A stretch of DNA of 64,000 nt from Chloroflexota bacterium (GTDB lineage: Bacteria; Chloroflexota; Anaerolineae; UBA7937; B3-Chlor), in the NCBI GenBank assembly GCA_030603665.1, contig JAUVXJ010000001.1, positions 214,480 to 278,479 on the forward strand, read 5' to 3'. The notes beneath the pieces are model-generated. The model searched no databases, was not told where the DNA came from, and saw only the letters and a program-made list of their open reading frames with translations. The position numbers and the translations under genes are program-made. Every line of letters begins with the position of its first letter. The first letter of the stretch is position 1. Shown piece by piece: positions 784 through 57,552 of this stretch.

Positions 784-3126
784 CTACTCCCTCGTCCTCC
801 AACGAAGGGTGGCGTACCCTGCTAATCCAGCAAGGCCGCTGCCCAGAAGCAGAATGGTGCCGGGCTCGGGGACCAACTCCTCCGGTGCGACGGGCTCCTC
901 CGGTGCGACGGGCTTCTCCGAGGACTGGCAGATCTCGGCCTCCCCGTCATCGACGCAGACTTGGATATTGTAGATGCGATTGTCACCGTAGGTGTAAGGG
1001 ATTGTCACGCCGCCACACCAGGGGTCGCAGTCGCCCTGCCTTTCACTTCGCGTCTGATATTGCTCTGTGCCGTCGCCCCAGTCGACGCTCACGGTAACAC
1101 TTTCGGCGGCAGGGTCGCTCCATTGGACGAGCAGTTGGCCCCTCTGCCCTGCACGTCCCGAGTGCTGCCAATCCCAACCGATCGTGGGCTGGACGTTCAT
1201 CTGCTGGATCGTCGTGGTCACAGTCTGCGAGTAGCCCCAGTATTCCAGAGTCACTTCGCAACTGCAGCTCCCCGGAGGACCAGTGAACACGGCTCGACTA
1301 TCATCGTCCGTTGGCGTCAAGGAGCCCTCGCACTCGCTGCAGTCTAGGCTCCACCAATATGGTTCAGCAGGAGGCAAGATCGAATAGATGATCTGCGCCG
1401 AGGTGGCCCAGTTGTCATGAGCCCCCTCGGGGTAGTATTGGCATCCACCTAGACTATCATTGGCGCCCACCCAGCGCGCCTCGATGACGTTGCCAGTCCC
1501 ATCGCACTGGATATAGTAGCCTCCGTATCTCCAGTTCTGGTAGATTCTGAGTGTCGAAGTCTGGGGCCCGCAGAAAGTGAACGACGACATCTCATTATCG
1601 AAGAAGTCAAGACCGTTGGGGCCTCCCGTGAAGTCGTCGAATTCATCCGTGTATTGGTCCTCCCAGTCCATCATCAGAGCGCTACCCTCGGGGAGCACCT
1701 TGTTCATATTGGCGTTGTCGAACATATGCACCCACGGGTCGATCACGTAGACCTCGCCGTTCAGCTCCAGGCTGGATCCTTCGTCGATGCTGTAGGGCCC
1801 ACCGAGGTGGTCCTCTCGCCACTGCGGCCCGCATGTCTTGGTGTGGGAGACATAGATACTTCTGTATTCGCCCATCTCGATGACCGGGACCTCTTCTCTC
1901 GTAAACGCCTGGTGATCCGCAGTGTAAAGGATGAGCTGTCCCGTAGGGCTCACATAGATGCCGGAGGCGGCGTCCAGATCACCAAAATTTCCACCTGGAA
2001 TGCTGCTCAGATCAAGAGGACCCTCAAGCCTAAGGTCGCTCACCTGGATATGCCTGAGCAGCTCGAACGTGACGGCATCTGCAGACGGGCTTGGCAGGAG
2101 TTTGCTTTCATCGACACTGTACAAAGCTATCCAGTCGTGGCCAACATCTAGCAAATCTGTACTGTTGTCCCCAGCGATGAGATACAGCGCGCCGGAGGTG
2201 TCACGGACAAAATTAAGCGTCTGCCATTTAAGGTCATCGGGCATGAACGGCTGAGTGTAACCAATTATGTCAATATCGAAGTCACCATGGCCCAGGGGGT
2301 AGCCGTTCGAATAGGCGAAGGCCCATACACTGGAGTCGCCCCAAGTGAAGACGAACAGGTATTTATCCTCGTCAATGTTACTCCTGGTGACGCCAACGAC
2401 GCCGAGCCCGTCAAGCATCAGCGACCGATGATACTTGGGCACTGGGTTCATAGGATCCCCGACGTCAATCAGGGCTAATCCGGCTCTACCGTCGCATTGT
2501 GTACGGTCGCATCCCCAACCTCCAGTGGTACACTCCAAAGGCACCGCCAAGAAGTCGTCGATAAGCTGCACGCCGCCGGCGTGCCAATACTTCGGCCAGC
2601 CGCCTGTTCCGTCAAACAACCTGGTGGACTTGACCCCCCTGTCGTCCGAAGGTGGGGCCGTATCCGCGAAATCTTTGTCCGGCTTCAGGCGGTTGGAGCG
2701 GAGCCGCTCGCCGAACGTATCCCTAGATCCCATTCTCACGATCAGTAATTCACCGGGCTGACAGTCCCAACCAAGGCACGAACCTGTCCTGTTCCTGTTC
2801 CTTGTCAGGAACAAGTAAGGCGTGCCGTCGGGGCCTGCACCTCGCGCCATGCCCTGGTAGTGCCTACATGGGATCAAGCCATAGTCGGTCTTACCCACAC
2901 CCACCCGGGCGCCCAGTGGATCGCCGAAGTTCTGAAGATCCTCAAACTGCTTGTATACGTTGGGCGCTTCTCTATAGGGGGTGTTGTAGTTTTGGACGTC
3001 ATCATCCAACGTGGACAGCGGCGCCGTATCGCTCAGCGGCTTGGAAGCCCCCGTTGCGCCGACGAGCGCCAGCAGCAGCCCAACCACAACTATCCCATTC
3101 AACCACACTCTGCGCTTCATTCTCAA
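784..3126 (-). CDS. secreted protein with C-terminal PEP-CTERM sorting signal (exosortase substrate), function unknown
   Basis: 780 aa. The N-terminus is a signal peptide (MRMKRRVWLNGIVVVGLLLALVGATGA). The C-terminus is (PVAPEE)x3 - VPEPGTILLLGSGLAGLAGYATL - RWRTRE, i.e. a PEP motif, then a TM helix, then an Arg-rich tail, which matches PEP-CTERM. Confidence 0.75.
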   Translation of the reverse strand: MRMKRRVWLNGIVVVGLLLALVGATGASKPLSDTAPLSTLDDDVQNYNTPYREAPNVYKQFEDLQNFGDPLGARVGVGKTDYGLIPCRHYQGMARGAGPDGTPYLFLTRNRNRTGSCLGWDCQPGELLIVRMGSRDTFGERLRSNRLKPDKDFADTAPPSDDRGVKSTRLFDGTGGWPKYWHAGGVQLIDDFLAVPLECTTGGWGCDRTQCDGRAGLALIDVGDPMNPVPKYHRSLMLDGLGVVGVTRSNIDEDKYLFVFTWGDSSVWAFAYSNGYPLGHGDFDIDIIGYTQPFMPDDLKWQTLNFVRDTSGALYLIAGDNSTDLLDVGHDWIALYSVDESKLLPSPSADAVTFELLRHIQVSDLRLEGPLDLSSIPGGNFGDLDAASGIYVSPTGQLILYTADHQAFTREEVPVIEMGEYRSIYVSHTKTCGPQWREDHLGGPYSIDEGSSLELNGEVYVIDPWVHMFDNANMNKVLPEGSALMMDWEDQYTDEFDDFTGGPNGLDFFDNEMSSFTFCGPQTSTLRIYQNWRYGGYYIQCDGTGNVIEARWVGANDSLGGCQYYPEGAHDNWATSAQIIYSILPPAEPYWWSLDCSECEGSLTPTDDDSRAVFTGPPGSCSCEVTLEYWGYSQTVTTTIQQMNVQPTIGWDWQHSGRAGQRGQLLVQWSDPAAESVTVSVDWGDGTEQYQTRSERQGDCDPWCGGVTIPYTYGDNRIYNIQVCVDDGEAEICQSSEKPVAPEEPVAPEELVPEPGTILLLGSGLAGLAGYATLRWRTRE
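877..928. repeat. tandem 18-nt repeat (about 2.8 copies of ctcctccggtgcgacggg) encoding the PVAPEE linker repeats of the PEP-CTERM protein
   Basis: Direct inspection shows units at 877-894 and 895-912, with a degenerate third copy. Confidence 0.6.
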
Positions 3127-3804
3127 ATCTCCTTTCTTTCTCCAAGCTTACACCAACGTTGCCAGTTGTATCCGCCTCATTCCCCCATCTCCCTTCCGTC
3201 GCTAACCTCAGATCGACTTTCCCGATACCTGTTCATCCGTGCTGCTCATCACCTTCCGCCCCAAAAAGTGGGGGCTCGCCGGGTTGCGCCCAGCGAGCCC
3301 CTGTGCTAGAATAAGGGTGCACAAAGGGTGCCGAGAGCGCCTTGAGTGCATGGTCTTGGCCGGCCTTAACCCGGCCGAGACCACTTTCTATCTGTACCAC
3401 ACGAAGAAACCGGCCATACCTCCGGCCGGTTTCACTATTGGCTTACTGAGGGCCAAGTGACCACCTTGCGGCCCTCAGATCATCGCCTCCGGGATGTCAC
3501 ACTCGTCTTGGGATCAAAAAAGCGCCAACCGTCCGCTGCTTTAGCGAGAACGATCGGCGCTCCATATATTCCTCCTTCTTGCGGTTCAATTCGGGCGGTT
3601 GAAACGACAACTGTTCGATATAGATGTTAACTATACCGCTATCGGAGAGTCCGTCTTCTGCGCATAATGCCCTTCCTGTCCATTATATACCAAAATTGAA
3701 GACTTGTCAAGTTGGCAACGGCTATTTAGCTCTCACCTGTCCCCCGGGGGTGAGGAGAGGGCCAGCACTCCCATCAGCTTCACATTTCGACTTATGGGTA
3801 ACGC

Positions 3805-4293: not shown

Positions 4294-4497
4294 TACAGTG
4301 TGTGCTCCCCTGCCAGGGGAGATACTAGTCCATGGTCAAGTCGCCAGGGTCAGACATAGAACCAGCTCAACGGGTTCTCTGGCGTGGCGTGGGAGGAGGG
4401 CCGCCGTTCTAGAGCGACGGCCCTTTCTGTATTCGTTTGCGCCAGCAACATGCTCCTTGGGAACCACCTCTTCGGTCGCGACGGCACCCGCCAGTGT

Positions 4498-4527
4498 TTG
4501 ACAGGGAGCAACTCCATGGGCTATAAT
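4498..4527 (+). promoter_or_regulatory. near-consensus sigma70-type promoter (TTGACA-N18-TATAAT) upstream of the hdr cluster
   Basis: TTGACA is at 4498-4503, followed by an 18-nt spacer and TATAAT at 4522-4527. It lies about 135 nt upstream of the hdrA' ATG at 4666. A perfect consensus is unusual in 60% GC DNA. Confidence 0.45.
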
Positions 4528-4567
4528 ATCAATTGCAAATCTTACCGCGGTGGTCCGATTTTCTGCC

Positions 4568-4600
4568 AGGTGGATGCGAAATCGAGGCCACCTTTTGCTG
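4568..4600 (+). promoter_or_regulatory. leader hairpin followed by a T-tract (possible attenuator) in the hdrA' 5' UTR
   Basis: aggtgg (4568-4573) pairs with ccacct (4588-4593) across a 14-nt loop and is followed by TTTTGCTG. It sits between the predicted promoter and the start codon. Confidence 0.2.
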
Positions 4601-4665
4601 GTTGGCATGTGGTACGCTGGCCTGGCTTCTGGGCAACCTGTCGATCGGGCTCTGAAGGGGTAAGA

Positions 4666-5988
4666 ATGGGCGCGACACTGGTCATTGGCGCGGGCATCGC
4701 GGGTATGCAGGCCGCCCTGGACATCGCGGATGCGGGGTTCAAAGTCTACCTTGTAGAGAGAGACCCAAGCATCGGAGGGCGGATGGCCCAGCTCGACGAA
4801 ACCTTCCCCACCCTCGATTGTTCCTCGTGCATCCTTACACCAAAGATGGTCAGCGTGGGTGGTCACCCCAATATAGAATTGCTGACCTACTCGGAGGTGG
4901 TACAGCTCGAAGGAGACGTCGGGGACTTCAGGGTGAAGGTGCGGAGGAGGCCCCGGTACATTGACGCTGACAAGTGCACAGCATGCGGCATCTGTGCCGA
5001 GAACTGCCGTCTGAAGGGGAGGATAGACAGCGAATTCAACGTGGGCATGGGCAAGCGCAGCGCCGCGTATGTGCCCTTCCCGCAAGCCGTCCCGCTGAAG
5101 TACACCATCGACAGCGAGCGCTGTCTGATGGTGCAGAGAGGTAAGTGCGGCGAATCCCCGCCTTGCAGAAACGCGTGCCCGGCAGGCGCGGTGGACTTCG
5201 ATCAGCAGGAAGAGATAGTGGACCTCCAGGTGGACTCCGTGATCGTGGCCACCGGGTTTGACCCATTTGACCCTCACTTGAAGCCAGAGTACGGGTACGG
5301 TCTCTACGACAACGTGATCACCGGCCTCCAATTCGAGCGACTGTCGTCTGCCTCAGGCCCGACCTACGGTGAGATCAAGCTTAACGACCGAGAGATCAAC
5401 GACGTCGTCTTCATCCAGTGCGTGGGCAGCAGAGATCGCAATCTGGGGAACGTCTACTGCTCACGTGTGTGCTGTATGTACACTGCAAAACAGGCGCACC
5501 TGGTCCGCGAGAAGCTGCCAGATGCGCGGGTGACGGTCTTCTACATGGATATCAGGGCCTTCGGCAAAGGCTTTGAGGAGTTCTATGATCGGGTGAGGGA
5601 AGAGCGTGTACAGTATCGTCGTGGCAACCCAGCGGAGATCCACCGGCGCGGGGACCGTCTGGTCGTCAGGGCAGAGGACACATTGCTAGGCCAGCCCGTG
5701 GAGGTAGAGGCTGACCTAGTGGTCCTGGCGATTGGTCTCGTGCCGCGGGCAGACACGCAAGCTCTGGCTGAGTTGCTCGGTCTATCGTCATGCGAGGACG
5801 GATTCTTCCAGGAAGCTCATCCTAAGTTTCGACCCACAGAGACCGATGTAAGCGGAGTCTTTCTGGCGGGATGCTGTCAGGGTCCAAAGGACATCCCCGA
5901 CGCAGTGGCCCAGGGCAAGGCCGCGGCTGCGTCCGCCATTGTAATCATGTCACGATCCGGTTCAGCACTCACCCCAGGTGAGGAGTGA
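4666..5988 (+). CDS. hdrA: heterodisulfide reductase subunit A-like flavoprotein, short form (FAD domain plus inserted 2x[4Fe-4S] ferredoxin domain; no N-terminal Cys domain and no C-terminal ferredoxin domain)
   Basis: It contains MGATLVIGAGIAGMQAALDIADAGFKVYLVERDPSIGGRMAQLDETFPTLDCSSCILTPKM and FIQCVGSRDRNLGNVYCSRVCCMYTAKQAHL, plus an inserted CTACGICAENC...CGESPPCRNACP. The ORF caller extends it to 4384, but the Shine-Dalgarno sequence (gaagggg) and the homology begin at ATG 4666. Confidence 0.8.
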   Translation: MGATLVIGAGIAGMQAALDIADAGFKVYLVERDPSIGGRMAQLDETFPTLDCSSCILTPKMVSVGGHPNIELLTYSEVVQLEGDVGDFRVKVRRRPRYIDADKCTACGICAENCRLKGRIDSEFNVGMGKRSAAYVPFPQAVPLKYTIDSERCLMVQRGKCGESPPCRNACPAGAVDFDQQEEIVDLQVDSVIVATGFDPFDPHLKPEYGYGLYDNVITGLQFERLSSASGPTYGEIKLNDREINDVVFIQCVGSRDRNLGNVYCSRVCCMYTAKQAHLVREKLPDARVTVFYMDIRAFGKGFEEFYDRVREERVQYRRGNPAEIHRRGDRLVVRAEDTLLGQPVEVEADLVVLAIGLVPRADTQALAELLGLSSCEDGFFQEAHPKFRPTETDVSGVFLAGCCQGPKDIPDAVAQGKAAAASAIVIMSRSGSALTPGEE

Positions 5989-5994
5989 GGAGAA

Positions 5995-7113
5995 ATGGAA
6001 GCCGAACAGAGTCTCTTGGAACGTTGTGACCTCTGGGCGTGCATCCAGTGCGGCAAGTGCACTGGAGGGTGTCCCATGTCCTTCAAGACAGAGTTGAACA
6101 TCAGAAGACTGATCTACCAGGCGCTGCTCGATGGGGGCGTGAATGCCGATGGGATGGACGAACTGTGGGACTGCACTGCGTGTGGAACTTGCGTCCTCCG
6201 CTGCCCCAAGGAGGTTGGGCCATCAGACCTGATCGTAGCGTTGCGTACCACTTTGGTTGACGGAGGAGTGATTCCCCCTACCATCAGGGACGCTCTCACC
6301 AGTGTCTTCAGGCACGGCAACCCGTCACTCATGCCACCCGACGAGAGGGCTGACTGGGCGGAGGCTCTTGGCGTCAAGGATATCTCTGAAGGCGCGGACG
6401 TACTATACTTCGTTGGCTGCATTCCGTCGTACGATGATCGTGCCCAGAAGGTGGCCAAGTCTCTGGTGAAGGTCCTCCAGAAGGCAGACGTGGACTTTGG
6501 CATCCTTGGGGTGGAGGAAAAGTGCTGCTGCAACGAGGTTCGCCTAGTGGGTGAAGAAGGCCTCTTCGGGTACATGGTGGAAGAGCAGCGGGAACTGTTC
6601 GAGAGCAAGGGTGTCCAACACATCATCACTACCTCTCCACACTGCTTCAATACCTTCAAGAACGAATACGAAGGCTTGAATCTCAAGGTGCAGCACTACA
6701 CAGAGTTCGTCGCTGAACTCATTGAGCAGGGAAAGCTGACCTTCACCGGCGAACTCAACCAGGTGATCACCTATCACGACCCTTGCTTCCTGGGCAAACA
6801 GAATGGCGTCTTCGACGAGCCACGCGATATCATCAAGAGCATCCCGGGCGTCGAGTTCCGCGAGATGGACCGCATTCGTGACCGAAGCCTCTGCTGTGAG
6901 GGCGGCGGCGGGAGAATGTGGTGGGAGGGCACCAATCCGGAAGAGCAGCTCGCGACGGCACGCTTCGAGGAGGTGTTGAGCGTAGGCGCCGATGTCATGG
7001 CAGTCGCCTGCCCATTCTGCCTCCTCACCTTTGAGCTGGCTGCCAAGGCCGGGGGATACGACGAGAAAGTTCAAGTACTGGATATCATGGAGCTGGTGGC
7101 CCGAGCCATCTGA
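5995..7113 (+). CDS. HdrD-like iron-sulfur protein (fusion of an HdrC-type 2x[4Fe-4S] domain and an HdrB-type domain with two CCG motifs)
   Basis: The N-terminal part has CIQCGKCTGGCP and CTACGTCVLRCP. The C-terminal part has the CCG motifs ...VGCIPSY...EKCCCNEVR... and ...YHDPCFLG...SLCCEGGGG. A gaggag Shine-Dalgarno sequence precedes the ATG. Confidence 0.8.
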   Translation: MEAEQSLLERCDLWACIQCGKCTGGCPMSFKTELNIRRLIYQALLDGGVNADGMDELWDCTACGTCVLRCPKEVGPSDLIVALRTTLVDGGVIPPTIRDALTSVFRHGNPSLMPPDERADWAEALGVKDISEGADVLYFVGCIPSYDDRAQKVAKSLVKVLQKADVDFGILGVEEKCCCNEVRLVGEEGLFGYMVEEQRELFESKGVQHIITTSPHCFNTFKNEYEGLNLKVQHYTEFVAELIEQGKLTFTGELNQVITYHDPCFLGKQNGVFDEPRDIIKSIPGVEFREMDRIRDRSLCCEGGGGRMWWEGTNPEEQLATARFEEVLSVGADVMAVACPFCLLTFELAAKAGGYDEKVQVLDIMELVARAI

Positions 7114-7141
7114 TAATTGAGTCTTCTGAGCGGGAAAGAAG

Positions 7142-8857
7142 ATGGCAGCCAAGGTCGGAGTATACATCTGCCACTGCGGCATTAACATAGCGCATACGGT
7201 GGATGTCGAGGCAGTAGCGCAGGCGGCGCAGGACTTGGCGAACGTGACCGTTTCCAGGGACTACATCTACATGTGTTCTGACCCCGGACAGCAACTGATC
7301 CAAGATGACATCAGGGAGCTAGGTCTCAACCGCGTCGTAGTGGCCTCATGCTCTCCGCGCATGCATGAGCTAACCTTCAGAAGGGCGGTTCAGGAGGCCG
7401 GACTCAACCCCTACTTCCTGCAGATCGCCAATATCAGGGAGCAGTGCTCATGGGTGCATGGCGACCGTGAGTCTGCGACCGAGAAGGCCCAAGGCATCGT
7501 GTCCTCTGCGGTTGCCAGAGCGTGTCTTCTCCAACCGTTGGAGGAGAGAGACGTGGAGATCACACCTGCCGCGTTGGTCATCGGAGGGGGCATAGCAGGT
7601 CTTCAGGCCGCTCTGGACATCGCCGATGCTGGCTTCAAAGCCTACGTAGTTGAGAAGCAAGCAACCGTGGGTGGCCACGTCGCTCAGCTGGCGAGAACAT
7701 TCCCAACATTGGACAACGTCCAGACGCTACTGGCTGAGCTGGTGGAGAGGGCACAGGCGCACCCCAACATCGATGTACTGACCAACTCGCGCGTGCTGGA
7801 GGTGGATGGATTCATCGGGAGTTTTCGTGTGCAGGTAGGCTCACAGCCAGCGGATTCTTTGCCAGAGACTACCGCAGAGCTGGCTGTAGGGGCGATCATC
7901 GTCGCTACGGGCTTCGACGTCTTCGACGCCAGCCTGAAGCCGGAGTTCGGATATGGGGCATATGAGAACGTGATCACGGGACTGGAACTAGAGAAGCGCC
8001 TCATGGAATCCGAGGCGAGCAATGGCGCGAGCCCCCTTGGAGACGGAGCCGTCAAGGATGTGGTGTTCATCCAGTGCGTAGGCAGCAGGGATCGTACTCT
8101 GGGAAACGCTTACTGTTCTCGCGTGTGCTGCATGTCCACCGCGAAACAAGCTCACCTAGTCAGACAAGAGCTGCCAGACGCCCGGATCACTGTCTTCTAC
8201 ATGGACGTGCGCGCTTTCGGCAAGGGCTTCGAGCAGTTCTATGACCGGGTACGGGAGGAAAGAGTCCTCTATCGACGGGGGAATCCATCTGAGATCTACA
8301 AGAGAGGAGACAGGCTTGTCGCGAGAGCGGAGGACACCCTGCTGGGAAAGCCTGTGGAGGTTGAGGCTGACCTGGTGGTGCTGGCCACAGGTCTGGTGCC
8401 GCGGAGTGACGCGGACGAGATCGGAAGCTTGCTGAAGCTGTCTCGCTCCGAGGATGGATTCCTCATGGAGTTGCATCCGAAGCTCGGGCCGGTTGACACC
8501 ACAACTGATGGAGTCTTCCTTGCTGGCTGCTGTCAAGGACCCAAAGATATTACGGATACGATCGCGCAGGCGAAGGCGGCGGCATCTTCAGCTTTGATAC
8601 CGCTGTCCGTAGGCAAGGTGAGAGTTGAGTCGATTACCTGCGCTTTGGACCCGTTGTTGTGCTCGGGATGTGGACTGTGTGCTGAGGCGTGTATCTATAG
8701 TGCCCTGGCCCTCGACGAGCGTCGAAACGTGATGGTAGCCAACCAGGTGCTGTGCAAGGGCTGCGGAGCGTGCTCTACCGCCTGCCCGTCTGGCGCTATT
8801 GTACTCAATCACTTCACCCCCGACCAGATCCTGGCCGAGGTGGAGAGTGTAGTTTGA
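7142..8857 (+). CDS. hdrA: heterodisulfide reductase subunit A, long form (N-terminal Cys-rich domain, FAD domain, C-terminal 2x[4Fe-4S]); it lacks the ferredoxin insertion present in the upstream copy
   Basis: The N-terminus is VGVYICHCGINIAH. The FAD fingerprint is VIGGGIAGLQAALDIADAGFKAYVVEK, with FIQCVGSRDRTLGNAYCSRVCCMSTAKQAHL. The C-terminus carries CALDPLLCSGCGLCAEAC and CKGCGACSTACP. Confidence 0.85.
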   Translation: MAAKVGVYICHCGINIAHTVDVEAVAQAAQDLANVTVSRDYIYMCSDPGQQLIQDDIRELGLNRVVVASCSPRMHELTFRRAVQEAGLNPYFLQIANIREQCSWVHGDRESATEKAQGIVSSAVARACLLQPLEERDVEITPAALVIGGGIAGLQAALDIADAGFKAYVVEKQATVGGHVAQLARTFPTLDNVQTLLAELVERAQAHPNIDVLTNSRVLEVDGFIGSFRVQVGSQPADSLPETTAELAVGAIIVATGFDVFDASLKPEFGYGAYENVITGLELEKRLMESEASNGASPLGDGAVKDVVFIQCVGSRDRTLGNAYCSRVCCMSTAKQAHLVRQELPDARITVFYMDVRAFGKGFEQFYDRVREERVLYRRGNPSEIYKRGDRLVARAEDTLLGKPVEVEADLVVLATGLVPRSDADEIGSLLKLSRSEDGFLMELHPKLGPVDTTTDGVFLAGCCQGPKDITDTIAQAKAAASSALIPLSVGKVRVESITCALDPLLCSGCGLCAEACIYSALALDERRNVMVANQVLCKGCGACSTACPSGAIVLNHFTPDQILAEVESVV

Positions 8858-31233: not shown

Positions 31234-32535
31234 ATGACCATGGCGGGGCGAGCGTATGTGGAGACCGTAGGGCAGCACGAAGGCGAGCAGGCTACCATCA
31301 AGGGTTGGCTTTACAACAAGACTGACAAGGGCAAGCTGCAGTTCCTGCTGGTGCGGGACGGCACAGGCATCATCCAGGCTGTGGCTTTCAGGGATGACAT
31401 GCCGGCCGAGGCGTTCAAGGCAGCCCAGCAGGCCACGCAGGAGTCTTCCATTATCATGACGGGCATCGTCAGGGCCGACAAGCGAGCCCCCGGGGGCTAC
31501 GAGCTTGCTCTCACCAGCCTCGAGATTGTGCAACTGGCAGATCCCTATCCCATCACCCCCAAGGACCACGGCGTGGGTTTCCTCATGGACCATCGCCACC
31601 TTTGGCTACGGTCAGCGCGCCAGCACGCCATTCTCAAGGTCCGAGCCGAAGTCATCCGCGCCTGCCGCGACTATCTGGACGACAATGGCTTCGTTCTGGT
31701 TGACACGCCCATTCTCACTCCGGCTGCCTGCGAAGGGACAAGCACCCTCTTCGAGACTGACTACTTCGGTGAGTCCGCGTACCTCGCGCAGAGCGGTCAG
31801 CTCTATAGCGAGGCGAGCATCGCGTCCCTCGGAAAAGTGTACTGCTTTGGTCCTACCTTCCGCGCCGAGAAATCGAAGACTCGCCGGCATCTCCTGGAGT
31901 TCTGGATGGTCGAGCCGGAGATGGCGTACGCTGATCTGGATGACTGCATAGAACTCGCTGAGGGCTTCGTTGCCTACATCGTGCAGACCGTCCTGGACAG
32001 GCAGAAGGCGCAGCTGGAAGTGCTGGAGAGAGACACCACGCTGCTCGAGAAGGTGACACCACCGTTCCCGCGATTGTCGTACGATGAGGCCGTGGCGATG
32101 CTGCGCGAGCAAGGCCACGACATGGAATGGGGCGACGACTTCGGCGCTCCCGAGGAGACTGCGCTTGCTCAGAAGTCGGATAAGCCGGTGCTGATCCACC
32201 GCTTTCCCACGCAGTCCAAGGCCTTCTACATGGAGCCGGACCCTGAGCGTCCCGAGCTATCGTTGTCCGTAGACTGCCTTGCTCCCGAGGGGTATGGAGA
32301 GATCATAGGGGGCGGCCAGCGCATCGCCGACTACGACCTGCTGCTGACGCGGGTTAAGGAGCACAAACTGCCAGAAGAAGCCTTTCGCTGGTATCTGGAC
32401 CTCAGGCGCTACGGCTCTACACCTCACTCAGGGTTCGGTCTGGGCATCGAGCGCACAGTTGCCTGGATCTGCGGCCTGGAACACATACGAGAGACGATCT
32501 CCTTCCCGCGCATGCTCCATCGTCTCTATCCCTGA
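31234..32535 (+). CDS. asnS: asparaginyl-tRNA synthetase (class IIb)
   Basis: There is an N-terminal OB fold, class II motifs ([20 protein letters not shown]), and it ends in FP....LYP. The true start is probably ATG 31240, which has the better Shine-Dalgarno spacing. Confidence 0.85.
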
Positions 32536-35104: not shown

Positions 35105-35366
35105 AGTGTCTGCGTCCCCAGGGGACATTGTACTTGTGGAGTAGTTCCTTGCCAACCGTTCGTTGCGGTGATATGATTTGCCCCTATCACGAGCTAAAGC
35201 CTCAGGCAGAGCTGTGATGCCGCAACCCATGGACGGTGCTCAGCTTGAGAAACGCTCTCTCGATCGCGGGTGCACCCTTAGCAGCAATCATTGCCAGATA
35301 GGCCAAGCGGAGCGAACACCAAGACATGCCGTGGCCCTGGACGCCTCACATCATGGCACATAGGAG

Positions 35367-36035
35367 TTGAGTCAGGTGAACCCTAGCAGAATCCTCATCT
35401 CATTGACCATCATCTTGATCTGCGCCGGTGCGATGTCAAGTTGTGGCTCATCGGACAACGGAACCGCGCTGTCGCCCACGGCGACGGAGTTGCCTGACTC
35501 GACGACGGCTGCACCGCCTCTTGCGACGACCTCCACGGCTCCAGGGGGAAGCGAAGCGCCCGATGGGATACCGGTGATCGGCGACAGCGCCCCCGACTTC
35601 ACGCTGCCTTCGGTGTGGGGCGATGTCTTCACTCTTTCCCACTATCGAGGGGACCAAAACGTCGTACTGCTATTCTACAGAACGGGCAGTTGAGGGCCGT
35701 GCAGAACGCAACTCGGTGAGTTGCAGCAAGAGTACGCCAGGTTCCAGGAGCTCAACACGGAGTTGCTGGCTATCAGCGTTCAGGAGCCAGATATCGGCCA
35801 ACAAGTGTCCGAACTGCTCGATCTGCAGTATCCCGTTCTCTCAGACCCGGGCCGCCTGGCAGTGGATGCGTACGGGGTCTACGACCTGCTGGGTGACTCC
35901 CTGGCTGCCCCCTCGGTGTTCGTGATCGACATTGACGGGGTGGTTAGGTGGGTGTACGTGGGCGAGTCGTCCGGCGACCGTCCCAGCAACGAGATGATTC
36001 TGGAGCAACTGAGAGCCCTCGCCACACCTGGATGA
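35367..36035 (+). CDS. probable selenoprotein: exported, lipoprotein-like AhpC/TSA-family redoxin (thioredoxin fold) with an in-frame UGA (Sec) at 35691-35693 in a T-x-x-U-G-P-C motif
   Basis: Two called ORFs (35367..35693 and 35721..36035) share one frame. Read-through of the TGA gives ...VVLLFYRTGS-U-GPCRTQLGELQQEYARFQELNTELLAISVQ..., with no other stops. Homology to AhpC/TSA spans both halves (APDFTLP...FY..TxxC; LSDP; YGV; VFVIDIDGVVRWV). The N-terminus is signal or lipoprotein-like. The start may be GTG 35376. Confidence 0.6.
35708..35724 (+). promoter_or_regulatory. SECIS-like hairpin (7-bp perfect stem gcaactc/gagttgc with a GGU loop) starting 15 nt 3' of the in-frame UGA
   Basis: The sequence is gcaactc-ggt-gagttgc. 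Bacterial SECIS elements are hairpins immediately downstream of the UGA with a G/U apical loop. Confidence 0.4.
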
Positions 36036-55782: not shown

Positions 55783-57552
55783 CTATTCCTCACCGAGATC
55801 CAGACGCAGATGCAGCTCCCGCAACTGCTCGTCTGAGACGGGGGAGGGAGCGTCAAACATCAAGTCAGCGGCGGCGCCCGTCTTCGGGAAAGCCATCACT
55901 TCTCGGATGCTCTCCTCGCCCGCCAGGATCATCACCAACCGGTCTATCCCAGGGGCTATCCCCCCGTGGGGCGGCGTGCCGTATTCGAACGCCTCCAGCA
56001 AATGTCCAAACTGAGAGCGGATCTGTCCCAGAGGCAGACCCATGATGCCGAAGATCTTCTCCTGGGTGTCGCGACGATGGATACGGATGCTGCCTCCTCC
56101 GACCTCCACATCGTTGCACACCAGGTCGTACTGCTGAGCCCGAGCCGCGCCCGGGTCGGTATCCAGCAACGGTAAGTCTTCTTCCGCTGGCGCCGTGAAG
56201 GGATGATGCATCGCATCCCACCGGTTCTCCTGCTCCTTCCACTCGAAGAGAGGCATATCAACCACCCAAACGAAGGCCAGCTCATCTTTGTCCCGGAGCC
56301 CTAGCCGGTCCCCCATCTCCAGCCTCAGCTGCCCCAGGGACTCGGCGACCACAGCTGGCGGTCCTGCGACAATGAGGACCAGATCACCGGCTTCCGCGTC
56401 CATCCGCTCGATGATGGCGTCCAGGGCATCCGGGGAAAGATGCTTGGCCACGCTGGAACGGACCCCCTCCTTGGTCACAGCGATAGAGACGAGGCCCCGT
56501 GCGCCGTGTCGTTGTGCGAACTCGCCTAGCTCGTCCACCTGTTTGCGGGAGTAATCGGCGCAGCCAGGCGCCCTGATGCCCTTCACCTGCCCTCCGTCGG
56601 CGACCGTGGAGGAGAAGACGCGAAAACCACTATCCGCCACTAGATCGGAGAGATCCACCAGCGGCATCTGGAATCGCAGGTCGGGCTTGTCGCTCCCATA
56701 TGTGTCCATGGCCTCCTGGTAGCTGAGGCGCGGGAACGGTTTGAACAGAAGACGCTTGGTGGACACCTCCTCCACCAGGGCGGTGAACAACTCTTCGGTT
56801 AGCTGCAAGACGTCGTCTTGCTCCACAAAAGACATCTCGATATCCAGCTGGGTGAATTCGGGCTGTCGATCGGCTCTCTGATCCTCGTCTCGGAAGCAGC
56901 GGGCGATCTGATAGTATCTATCTATGCCTGCCACCATCAGCAGCTGCTTCAGTTGCTGGGGCGACTGAGGTAAAGCGTAGAAGTGACCTGGATGTATCCT
57001 GCTGGGAACGAGGTAGTCTCGGGCCCCCTCTGGCGTGCTCTTGATGAGAATAGGAGTCTCTACCTCCAGGAAGCCCCTCTCTTCCAGAAAGCTGCGGATG
57101 AAGCTGACGACCCGATGCCTCAGTATCAGCCTGCGTTGCAGGTCCGGCCTGCGCAGGTCAAGATACCTGTATCGCAACCGCAGGGCCTCCTCTGCCAGAG
57201 CTTCCTCATTGATGGGGAACGGGGGTGTACGTGCCTCGTTGAGAATCTCGATAGAGTGGCCCACGATCTCTATCTCGCCTGTACCCATCTCTGGGTTCTC
57301 CTGGTCAGCGGGACGACGCCTGACTTCCCCGGTGACCTTGAGCACGTACTCGTTGCGCACTTGGGAGGCCACCTGGTGCCCCTCCTCAGACGCTGAGGGA
57401 TCAACCACCACCTGGACCAGGCCCCACCGGTCTCTGAGGTCGATGAAGATCAGGCCGCCGTGGTCACGACGACGGTGCACCCAGCCTGCCAGTGTGACTG
57501 ACTTGCCTACGTCTTTGGCACGCAACTCCCCACAGGTGTCGCTTCTAAGCAC
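55783..57552 (-). CDS. aspS: aspartyl-tRNA synthetase
   Basis: It has an N-terminal OB fold, class II motifs ([24 protein letters not shown]) and a GAD insertion domain. Confidence 0.9.

Follow-up and report, generated by a model that had tools for sequence, protein, structure and literature searches.

The 64,000-nucleotide stretch of contig JAUVXJ010000001.1 from a member of the Chloroflexota (positions 214,480 to 278,479 of the forward strand; the whole stretch is called the window below) carries a gene for a peroxiredoxin-like redox protein whose reading frame is crossed by a TGA codon. An earlier reading, made from the sequence alone, had proposed that this gene encodes a single redoxin containing selenocysteine (Sec). 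Comparison with homologues supports that proposal through the same TGA at 36 loci, the ratio of non-synonymous to synonymous substitution rates (dN/dS), a constrained hairpin and the Cys/Sec pairs found among related proteins. The locus is thus very probably one real gene in which UGA is decoded as Sec.

Two open reading frames (ORFs) are listed in the same frame at this locus and, as the sequence-only reading stated, nothing but the TGA at 35691-35693 parts them. The joined translation reads ...VVLLFYRTGS*GPCRTQLGELQ... around that codon. Homology to the AhpC/TSA fold had been claimed for both halves, and both Pfam matches to the joined product, AhpC-TSA (aa 71-195, 105.9 bits against a cut-off of 26) and Redoxin, cross the TGA and cover both. 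The uninterrupted product had also been counted as 222 codons; its continuity stands, while its start is moved downstream. The TTG at 35367 proposed as start abuts the Shine-Dalgarno sequence, and GTG 35376 is most likely the true start, because an AGGAG lies 9 nt upstream of it and because it aligns with the M-N-x-K-R-V-L starts of homologues; from there the predicted product has 219 residues, with the TGA at position 106 and a cysteine at position 109. The apparent start of the second ORF, TTG 35721, sits within a hairpin and is an artefact of ORF finding. The features of the locus are as follows.

35362..35366, +: Shine-Dalgarno-like AGGAG, 9 nt 5' of the GTG start, read from the sequence
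35376..36035, +: complete gene of the probable selenoprotein, with GTG start, 219 sense codons including Sec106, and terminal TGA at 36033-36035
35376..35444, +: N-terminal segment resembling a signal or lipoprotein sequence, MNPSRILISLTIILICAGAMSSC, with the Cys23 codon at 35442-35444; by inspection only
35445..35576, +: low-complexity linker rich in Ser, Thr, Pro and Ala, between anchor and catalytic domain
35577..35951, +: thioredoxin-fold AhpC-TSA/Redoxin domain spanning the TGA (PF00578, 1.7e-30; PF08534, 2.8e-19)
35691..35693, +: in-frame TGA, probable Sec106, first residue of the U-G-P-C redox motif
35700..35702, +: Cys109 (TGC), partner of Sec in UxxC
35708..35724, +: hairpin GCAACUC/GAGUUGC resembling a bacterial selenocysteine insertion sequence (bSECIS), with a perfect 7-bp stem and apical loop GGU at 35715-35717
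35904..35930, +: AAPSVFVID segment, with Pro in place of the catalytic Arg of peroxiredoxins

The N-terminus consists of a positive n-region, a hydrophobic core and the residues A-M-S-S-C, followed by the Ser/Thr/Pro-rich linker, and by eye an exported protein or lipoprotein is plausible. Homologues carry instead a signal anchor or lipobox-like sequences of the L-G-A-C or V-T-S-C type, and the Ser/Thr/Pro/Ala linker is found in all of them, with poorly conserved sequence.

The UGA codon and its hairpin are conserved

Genome and metagenome collections were scanned for homologues and returned 33 loci; five divergent relatives (L038-L042) were reached through orphan C-terminal fragments. The sequence-only reading would have been undermined by homologues that terminate at this codon or consist of two genes. 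None does so: TGA is kept at the Sec codon in 36 of 36 homologous loci, at identities down to about 45%, and the frame continues in every one. The close clade (65-92% amino-acid identity, with differing flanks) has TGA here in each of its 28 distinct sequences, after which the frame runs on as GPCRTQLG[EQ]LQ.... Other Sec-type homologues extend to about 45% identity; they include L032 and L034 (47-48%) and the five divergent relatives, all of which have TGA at the same codon, in the motifs UGPC, UGYC, UVYC, UYAC and UGIC. The database protein P0010 stops at ...LLFYRTGS, and its contig has the same TGA, a continuing frame and a two-ORF call by the Joint Genome Institute (JGI). Selection on the protein does not end at the TGA either, as dN/dS 3' of it is 0.05-0.36, the same range as in the 5' part; dS is about 1 or above for most comparisons with the more distant homologues.

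Within the window TGA is the stop codon of 13 of the 27 other genes with Pfam support, and of the gene in question itself; the code is therefore standard and the recoding local. Conserved recoding of this UGA is, together with selection on the hairpin, what the comparison shows. Among 82 mechanically listed candidates for other TGA-split ORFs in the window, none was seen with a redox-type motif at the TGA, and the long ones that were checked turned out to be adjacent genes with their own starts, or to lie opposite real genes.

One further locus, L035 (1-1242), matches the gene only from ...IVLVFYRTAG-U-GPC to ...AISVE; beyond that its sequence is unrelated, and the contig may be a chimeric assembly or have been rearranged.

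The perfect 7-bp hairpin with a GGU loop that had been noted downstream of the codon is present as described. It begins 14 nt past the TGA, places the loop 21 nt from it, and folds in isolation at -7.7 kcal/mol. The bSECIS consensus asks for a loop of 3-9 nt with G in its first two positions (pattern N1-G-[G|U]-N-N2), a stem of 4-16 bp, a distance from UGA to loop of 16-37 nt and a minimum free energy (MFE) of at most -7.5 kcal/mol (PMC13188914). The hairpin agrees with the model on all four counts, with C-GGU-G, 7 bp, 21 nt and -7.7 kcal/mol respectively, and relatives have the loops GGN, GUG, GUU or GUC. Such an arrangement is rare: perfect hairpins of at least 7 bp with bSECIS geometry follow 13 of the 2036 TGA trinucleotides of the window (0.6%).

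The stem is also frozen at its synonymous sites. In a codon alignment of the 28 distinct sequences, the synonymous entropy of the stem codons ACG, CAA, CTC, GAG and TTG is only 0-0.22 bit; the other conserved degenerate codons (n=90) average 1.13 bit, and two of them are as low as the stem. The run of seven codons with the lowest synonymous entropy in the entire gene sits on the hairpin, and the Gly codon of the loop uses all four synonyms. RNAalifold recovers the stem from the homologues. In the close clade alone covariation amounts to one compensatory event, with a score reached by 30 of 500 shuffles; with the divergent members added (17 sequences), 95% of cells are paired and none of 500 shuffles reaches the score. 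Compensatory changes fall at two pairs (A-U to G-C three times, to G-U once, and C-G to A-U once) and are located in L030, L038, L039 and L041; in L030, for example, CAA becomes CAG together with a change of TTG to CTG. The full-length homologue P0001/L002, which has Ser, serves as a negative control: it encodes a comparable peptide, QQLVELQ, yet lacks the hairpin. Selection acts on the RNA hairpin as such, apart from that on the encoded protein.

Compared with the E. coli fdhF-type SECIS and the bSECISearch consensus, the element is alike in being a hairpin of the coding region right after the UGA, with a small G-G/U loop at 21 nt (16-37). It differs in that only a 6-7 bp stem is conserved, with no lower helix and no bulged U, and in the freedom of its third loop base. 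Both a lower SECIS helix and a second, alternative fold were considered; they occur in some homologues only and were not taken as part of the element. The alternative pairs CCUGCAG with UUGCAGG within the first 48 nt past the TGA, and in homologues with a GGC loop (L004, L015, L016, L019, L021, L022, L029 and others) this competing structure is the predicted MFE fold.

Active site, protein family and function

The sequence-only reading had placed the UGA at the redox-active Cys of a TxxC motif. In MAFFT and HMMER alignments this is not its position: U106 falls in the column of the Thr of the peroxiredoxin motif PxxxTxxC, which in TlpA/ResA-like and PRX-like proteins holds the first Cys of CxxC. 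The column of Cys109 is that of the peroxidatic Cys in peroxiredoxins, e.g. Cys45 of AhpE, and of the second Cys of CxxC. The U-x-x-C pair itself was correctly recognized, as the motif reads U-G-P-C with Cys109 retained.

Relatives were surveyed by an exhaustive HMMER search with the C-terminal half, which returned 1390; the classes given here are those of the 150 best cluster representatives. Aligning Cys-containing homologues had been proposed as a check, and 38 of the 150 do have Cys at the UGA column, in full-length proteins with CxxC motifs (CGIC, CEIC, CPFC and others); P0127, for example, reads FYRGFF-C-GIC. Six have Ser at that column. Another 72 are short orphan proteins (about 100 aa) that begin 1-11 residues past the U column, a pattern characteristic of further TGA-split genes; second halves of this kind are all that is seen of at least 72 clusters at 50% identity.

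Some homologues are fusions, in which a weak SurA-N-like region is followed by a TlpA-like WCPxC domain and then by the Sec- or Cys-type PRX-like domain. Multidomain proteins of this kind are encoded at L032 (TGA at 486) and L034 (TGA at 3109), where the last domain has U-G-P-C; the proteins P0122 and P0126 show the same order, with C-G-S-C or C-G-A-C in the last domain. Such an order suggests a built-in redox relay.

The type of selenoprotein to which the protein is most alike has been known since 2004-2008. Prx-like UxxC proteins go back, by the citation given in PMC13188914, to Kryukov & Gladyshev 2004, and the family was defined by Zhang et al. 2005 (PMC1088965) and Zhang & Gladyshev 2008 (PMC2398784). 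The Global Ocean Sampling data contained 225 sequences of 'Prx-like 1, pfam00578, UxxC' and 2,740 Cys homologues (PMC2398784), and a 2026 catalogue lists 'Prx-like thiol:disulfide oxidoreductase, PF00578, UxxC/UxxU' and 'Redoxin family protein, PF08534, UxxC' (PMC13188914). Shared with these proteins are PF00578 membership, a distant homology to peroxiredoxins, a thioredoxin-like UxxC instead of TxxU, CxxC in the Cys homologues and a bSECIS hairpin after the UGA. The protein fits the family by this description; it differs in its membership of an Anaerolineae clade and in a putative N-terminal anchor or lipobox with a Ser/Thr/Pro linker.

Several other families resemble the protein in part. With TlpA, ResA and CcmG it would share an anchored extracytoplasmic thioredoxin fold (the anchor here being judged by eye), a motif of the x-x-P-C type with the nucleophile in the same column, and a Pro in the GIPTTF/VPTTF column. 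It is set apart by Sec in place of Cys, by the absence of cytochrome-maturation genes at the locus, and by a sequence nearer to AhpE/BCP than to ResA (56.7 vs 43.6 bits). ResA is the best NCBIfam match, with a score far below the cut-off (62.3 against 170). With peroxiredoxins, including their Sec forms, the protein has in common the fold, the Pfam family and the alignment of Cys109 to the peroxidatic Cys; in the Sec-peroxiredoxins (TxxU), in contrast, Sec replaces the peroxidatic Cys itself, whereas here it stands three residues upstream. The selenoprotein models of NCBIfam all score below their cut-offs (SelL_rel_redox 60.6 vs 120, PrxU 43.3 vs 270, WAxxUGC_long 22.5 vs 300), and automatic pipelines therefore do not name the protein. 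The CxxC homologues probably resemble PRX_like2 of CDD (cd02970).

If the gene is read as proposed, the conservation of the 6-7 bp hairpin with its G-G/U-N loop, 14 nt past the UGA, suggests that it acts as a bacterial SECIS that would recruit SelB-GTP-Sec-tRNA(Sec), so that UGA is read as Sec and not as a stop. The 219-residue product would be a membrane- or lipid-anchored, extracytoplasmic protein with a peroxiredoxin-like thioredoxin fold and a U-G-P-C site. By analogy with the family, the selenolate of Sec106 would stand in for the N-terminal nucleophilic Cys of a thioredoxin-type CxxC and attack an oxidized substrate, i.e. a disulfide or possibly a sulfenate or peroxide, and the intermediate would be resolved by Cys109, giving an intramolecular selenenylsulfide. 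Re-reduction may then come from a thiol-disulfide relay, probably through a TlpA/ResA-type domain of the kind fused directly upstream in some homologues.

A live alternative, if an unlikely one, is that the protein is a true selenoprotein serving as a Sec-dependent thiol peroxidase, with chemistry like that of glutathione peroxidase (GPx) on a peroxiredoxin scaffold, and not as a disulfide reductase. Its closest solved relatives are indeed peroxiredoxins (AhpE and BCP), with AhpE of M. tuberculosis the best at 2e-14. Sec at the N-terminus of a helix is the GPx arrangement, and the fusion behind a TlpA-like domain resembles a pair of peroxidase and reductant. The active site speaks against this role, however, as three of the four peroxiredoxin active-site residues are replaced. 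F-Y-R-T-G-S-U-G-P-C has Arg for Pro and Sec for Thr, and in the HMMER alignment the equivalent of the catalytic Arg116 of AhpE is the Pro within AAPSVFVID. The motif is instead of the thioredoxin type, x-G-P-C, and the replacing Pro shares its column with the Pro of TlpA-like oxidoreductases (AMPSTV, GIPTTF/VPTTF type), presumably the cis-Pro of the thioredoxin fold.

Decoding of the UGA codon

Several observations weigh against a selenoprotein with the proposed role. Neither selA, selB, selD nor a tRNA-Sec was found in the 64-kb window or at any fetched locus: tblastn with E. coli SelA, SelB and SelD gave no match in the window or in any of the loci, and ARAGORN, run on the window and on 32 loci, reported no tRNA. 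The Anaerolineae clade yielded no Cys orthologue, and the closest full-length homologue has Ser. The hairpin is short, its lower helix is not conserved, a competing fold exists in some homologues, and the covariation depends on few events. At -7.7 kcal/mol the hairpin barely passes the energy threshold, and in the Gln variants, taken in isolation, it falls short (-5.1 kcal/mol). Folding the region had been proposed as a check. The stem is conserved across homologues and recovered by RNAalifold; as a single sequence the 58-nt region has no greater stability than shuffled versions of it (z = -0.29), which is uninformative, and the hairpin owes its support to the comparison of homologues. No redox partner gene adjoins the gene; the role as a reductase, the redox partner and export of the protein are all putative.

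The lack of Sec-decoding genes in the window also bears on an improbable alternative, namely that the UGA is recoded without Sec. A near-cognate tRNA (Trp, Cys or Arg) might read through it by means of the hairpin, or the code might be one in which UGA is sense. Two of the 150 representatives, the database proteins P0130 and P0255, do show Trp at the U column (HF-W-GIC). The contig of P0130 (L042, TGA at 303), however, carries TGA there, and translation with table 11 does not yield the deposited protein; its Trp therefore stems from a UGA read as sense. TGA is moreover a frequent genuine stop in the window, and the site is that of the CxxC nucleophile, which is Cys in homologues and would be inactive as Trp or Arg. 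The G-[G/U]-N loop and its spacing fit the model of a SelB-dependent bSECIS. For related organisms, SelB and Sec-type formate dehydrogenases have been reported in Anaerolineales single-cell genomes and SelB in Anaerolinea thermophila (PMC4959059), and unusual forms of tRNA-Sec, 8/4 forms included, are known in Chloroflexi (PMC5389517).

It is very improbable that the locus holds two genes, in which the TGA would end an anchored N-terminal peptide and TTG 35721 would start an independent C-terminal protein of 104 aa. Gene callers give exactly this split, and databases contain many orphan second halves about 100 aa long. The split would lie, though, inside a single thioredoxin-fold domain and directly in its redox motif, with the proposed start inside the hairpin. 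The database orphans differ in first residue and start codon, the 27 nt that separate the ORFs code for a conserved GPCRTQLGE, and the full-length Cys homologues are single proteins. A pseudogene or sequencing error, i.e. a nonsense mutation in an ordinary CxxC/TxxC redoxin gene, can be credited least of all: one in-frame TGA does split the ORF and no Sec machinery is seen in 64 kb, but the same TGA recurs in 36 independent loci from many samples, which by their identities and differing flanks are not copies of one misassembly, the frame past it is intact and under purifying selection, and the synonymous sites of the adjacent hairpin are frozen. On this evidence the pseudogene, error and two-gene readings are excluded for practical purposes.

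Decoding of UGA as Sec in a single gene is the preferred reading. The type of protein has long been known, and the result is therefore a correction of annotation and not a discovery. Its new elements are modest: the protein belongs to the Anaerolineae, its putative architecture is an anchored one, and neither curated selenoprotein models nor gene callers recognize the gene. That gene callers would split such genes had been anticipated, and in a homologue JGI called two ORFs, one a 'hypothetical protein' of 121 aa and the other an AhpC-TSA fragment of 103 aa. The practical value lies in such cases, where callers divide the gene into a 'hypothetical protein' and a truncated AhpC-TSA protein; dozens of clusters of orphan halves are present in protein libraries. 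The 36 homologous pairs of UGA and hairpin could be used to train predictors of bSECIS elements and selenoproteins, or to seed a curated hidden Markov model of a subfamily that escapes the present NCBIfam models. The locus would add a selenoprotein to an Anaerolineae lineage and imply a need of the organism for selenium; what is known of Sec decoding or redox chemistry is unchanged by it. A bolder and doubtful proposal is that the Anaerolineae clade and its relatives form a distinct, uncurated subfamily of exported selenoproteins. Their anchored Sec-Cys centre would operate outside a cytoplasm bounded by a single membrane, and in some members it would be hard-wired to TlpA-like CxxC and SurA-N-like chaperone domains as a selenium redox relay with its own substrate.

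Neighbouring genes and other features of the window

The gene order around the locus is polysaccharide synthesis protein, asparaginyl-tRNA synthetase (AsnRS), ABC1 kinase, NTP-transferase, the gene of the probable selenoprotein, GH2, ferredoxin-like protein and EEP nuclease. This neighbourhood is syntenic with the Anaerolineae metagenome-assembled genome W31_79, in which the AsnRS is 84% identical and contig DAOUME010000006.1 carries the orthologue, and with many contigs from sediment metagenomes (L008 and L031 stem from sediment samples); the gene is therefore taken to be a vertically inherited orthologue in an Anaerolineae lineage. The NTP-transferase, GH2, ABC1 kinase and AsnRS genes are syntenic neighbours without a functional link to it. 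About 200 nt 5' of the gene, within the divergent NTP-transferase ORF, lies a promoter-like site (35149-35177, +) made up of TTGCCA, a spacer of 17 nt and TATGAT with an extended TG; it agrees with the consensus at 10 of 12 positions and is a consensus match only. Rfam gave nothing relevant at the locus, at either the gathering or a permissive threshold.

Two genes for class II synthetases of the Asp/Asn/Lys type are present in the window. The one at 31234-32535 (+) has no GAD domain and is AsnRS-like, and the one at 55783-57552 (-) has a GAD domain and is AspRS-like. With its start at 32459, as listed mechanically, the ABC1 kinase ORF shares 77 nt with the end of the AsnRS-like gene.

Families of the HdrA and HdrD types are often selenoproteins in other bacteria. 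An HdrA-like cluster occupies 4384-8857 (+), where two flavoproteins (Pyr_redox_2, the second with Fer4) flank a CCG and 4Fe-4S protein resembling HdrD/GlpC; its HdrA-like and HdrD-like genes have no in-frame TGA. On the other strand, Rfam identifies 3415-3499 (-) as a cyclic-di-GMP-II riboswitch (RF01786; 58 bits, gathering score 53.5), about 290 nt 5' of an ORF of 780 aa at 784-3126 (-) without a Pfam match, which may be a gene controlled by cyclic di-GMP.

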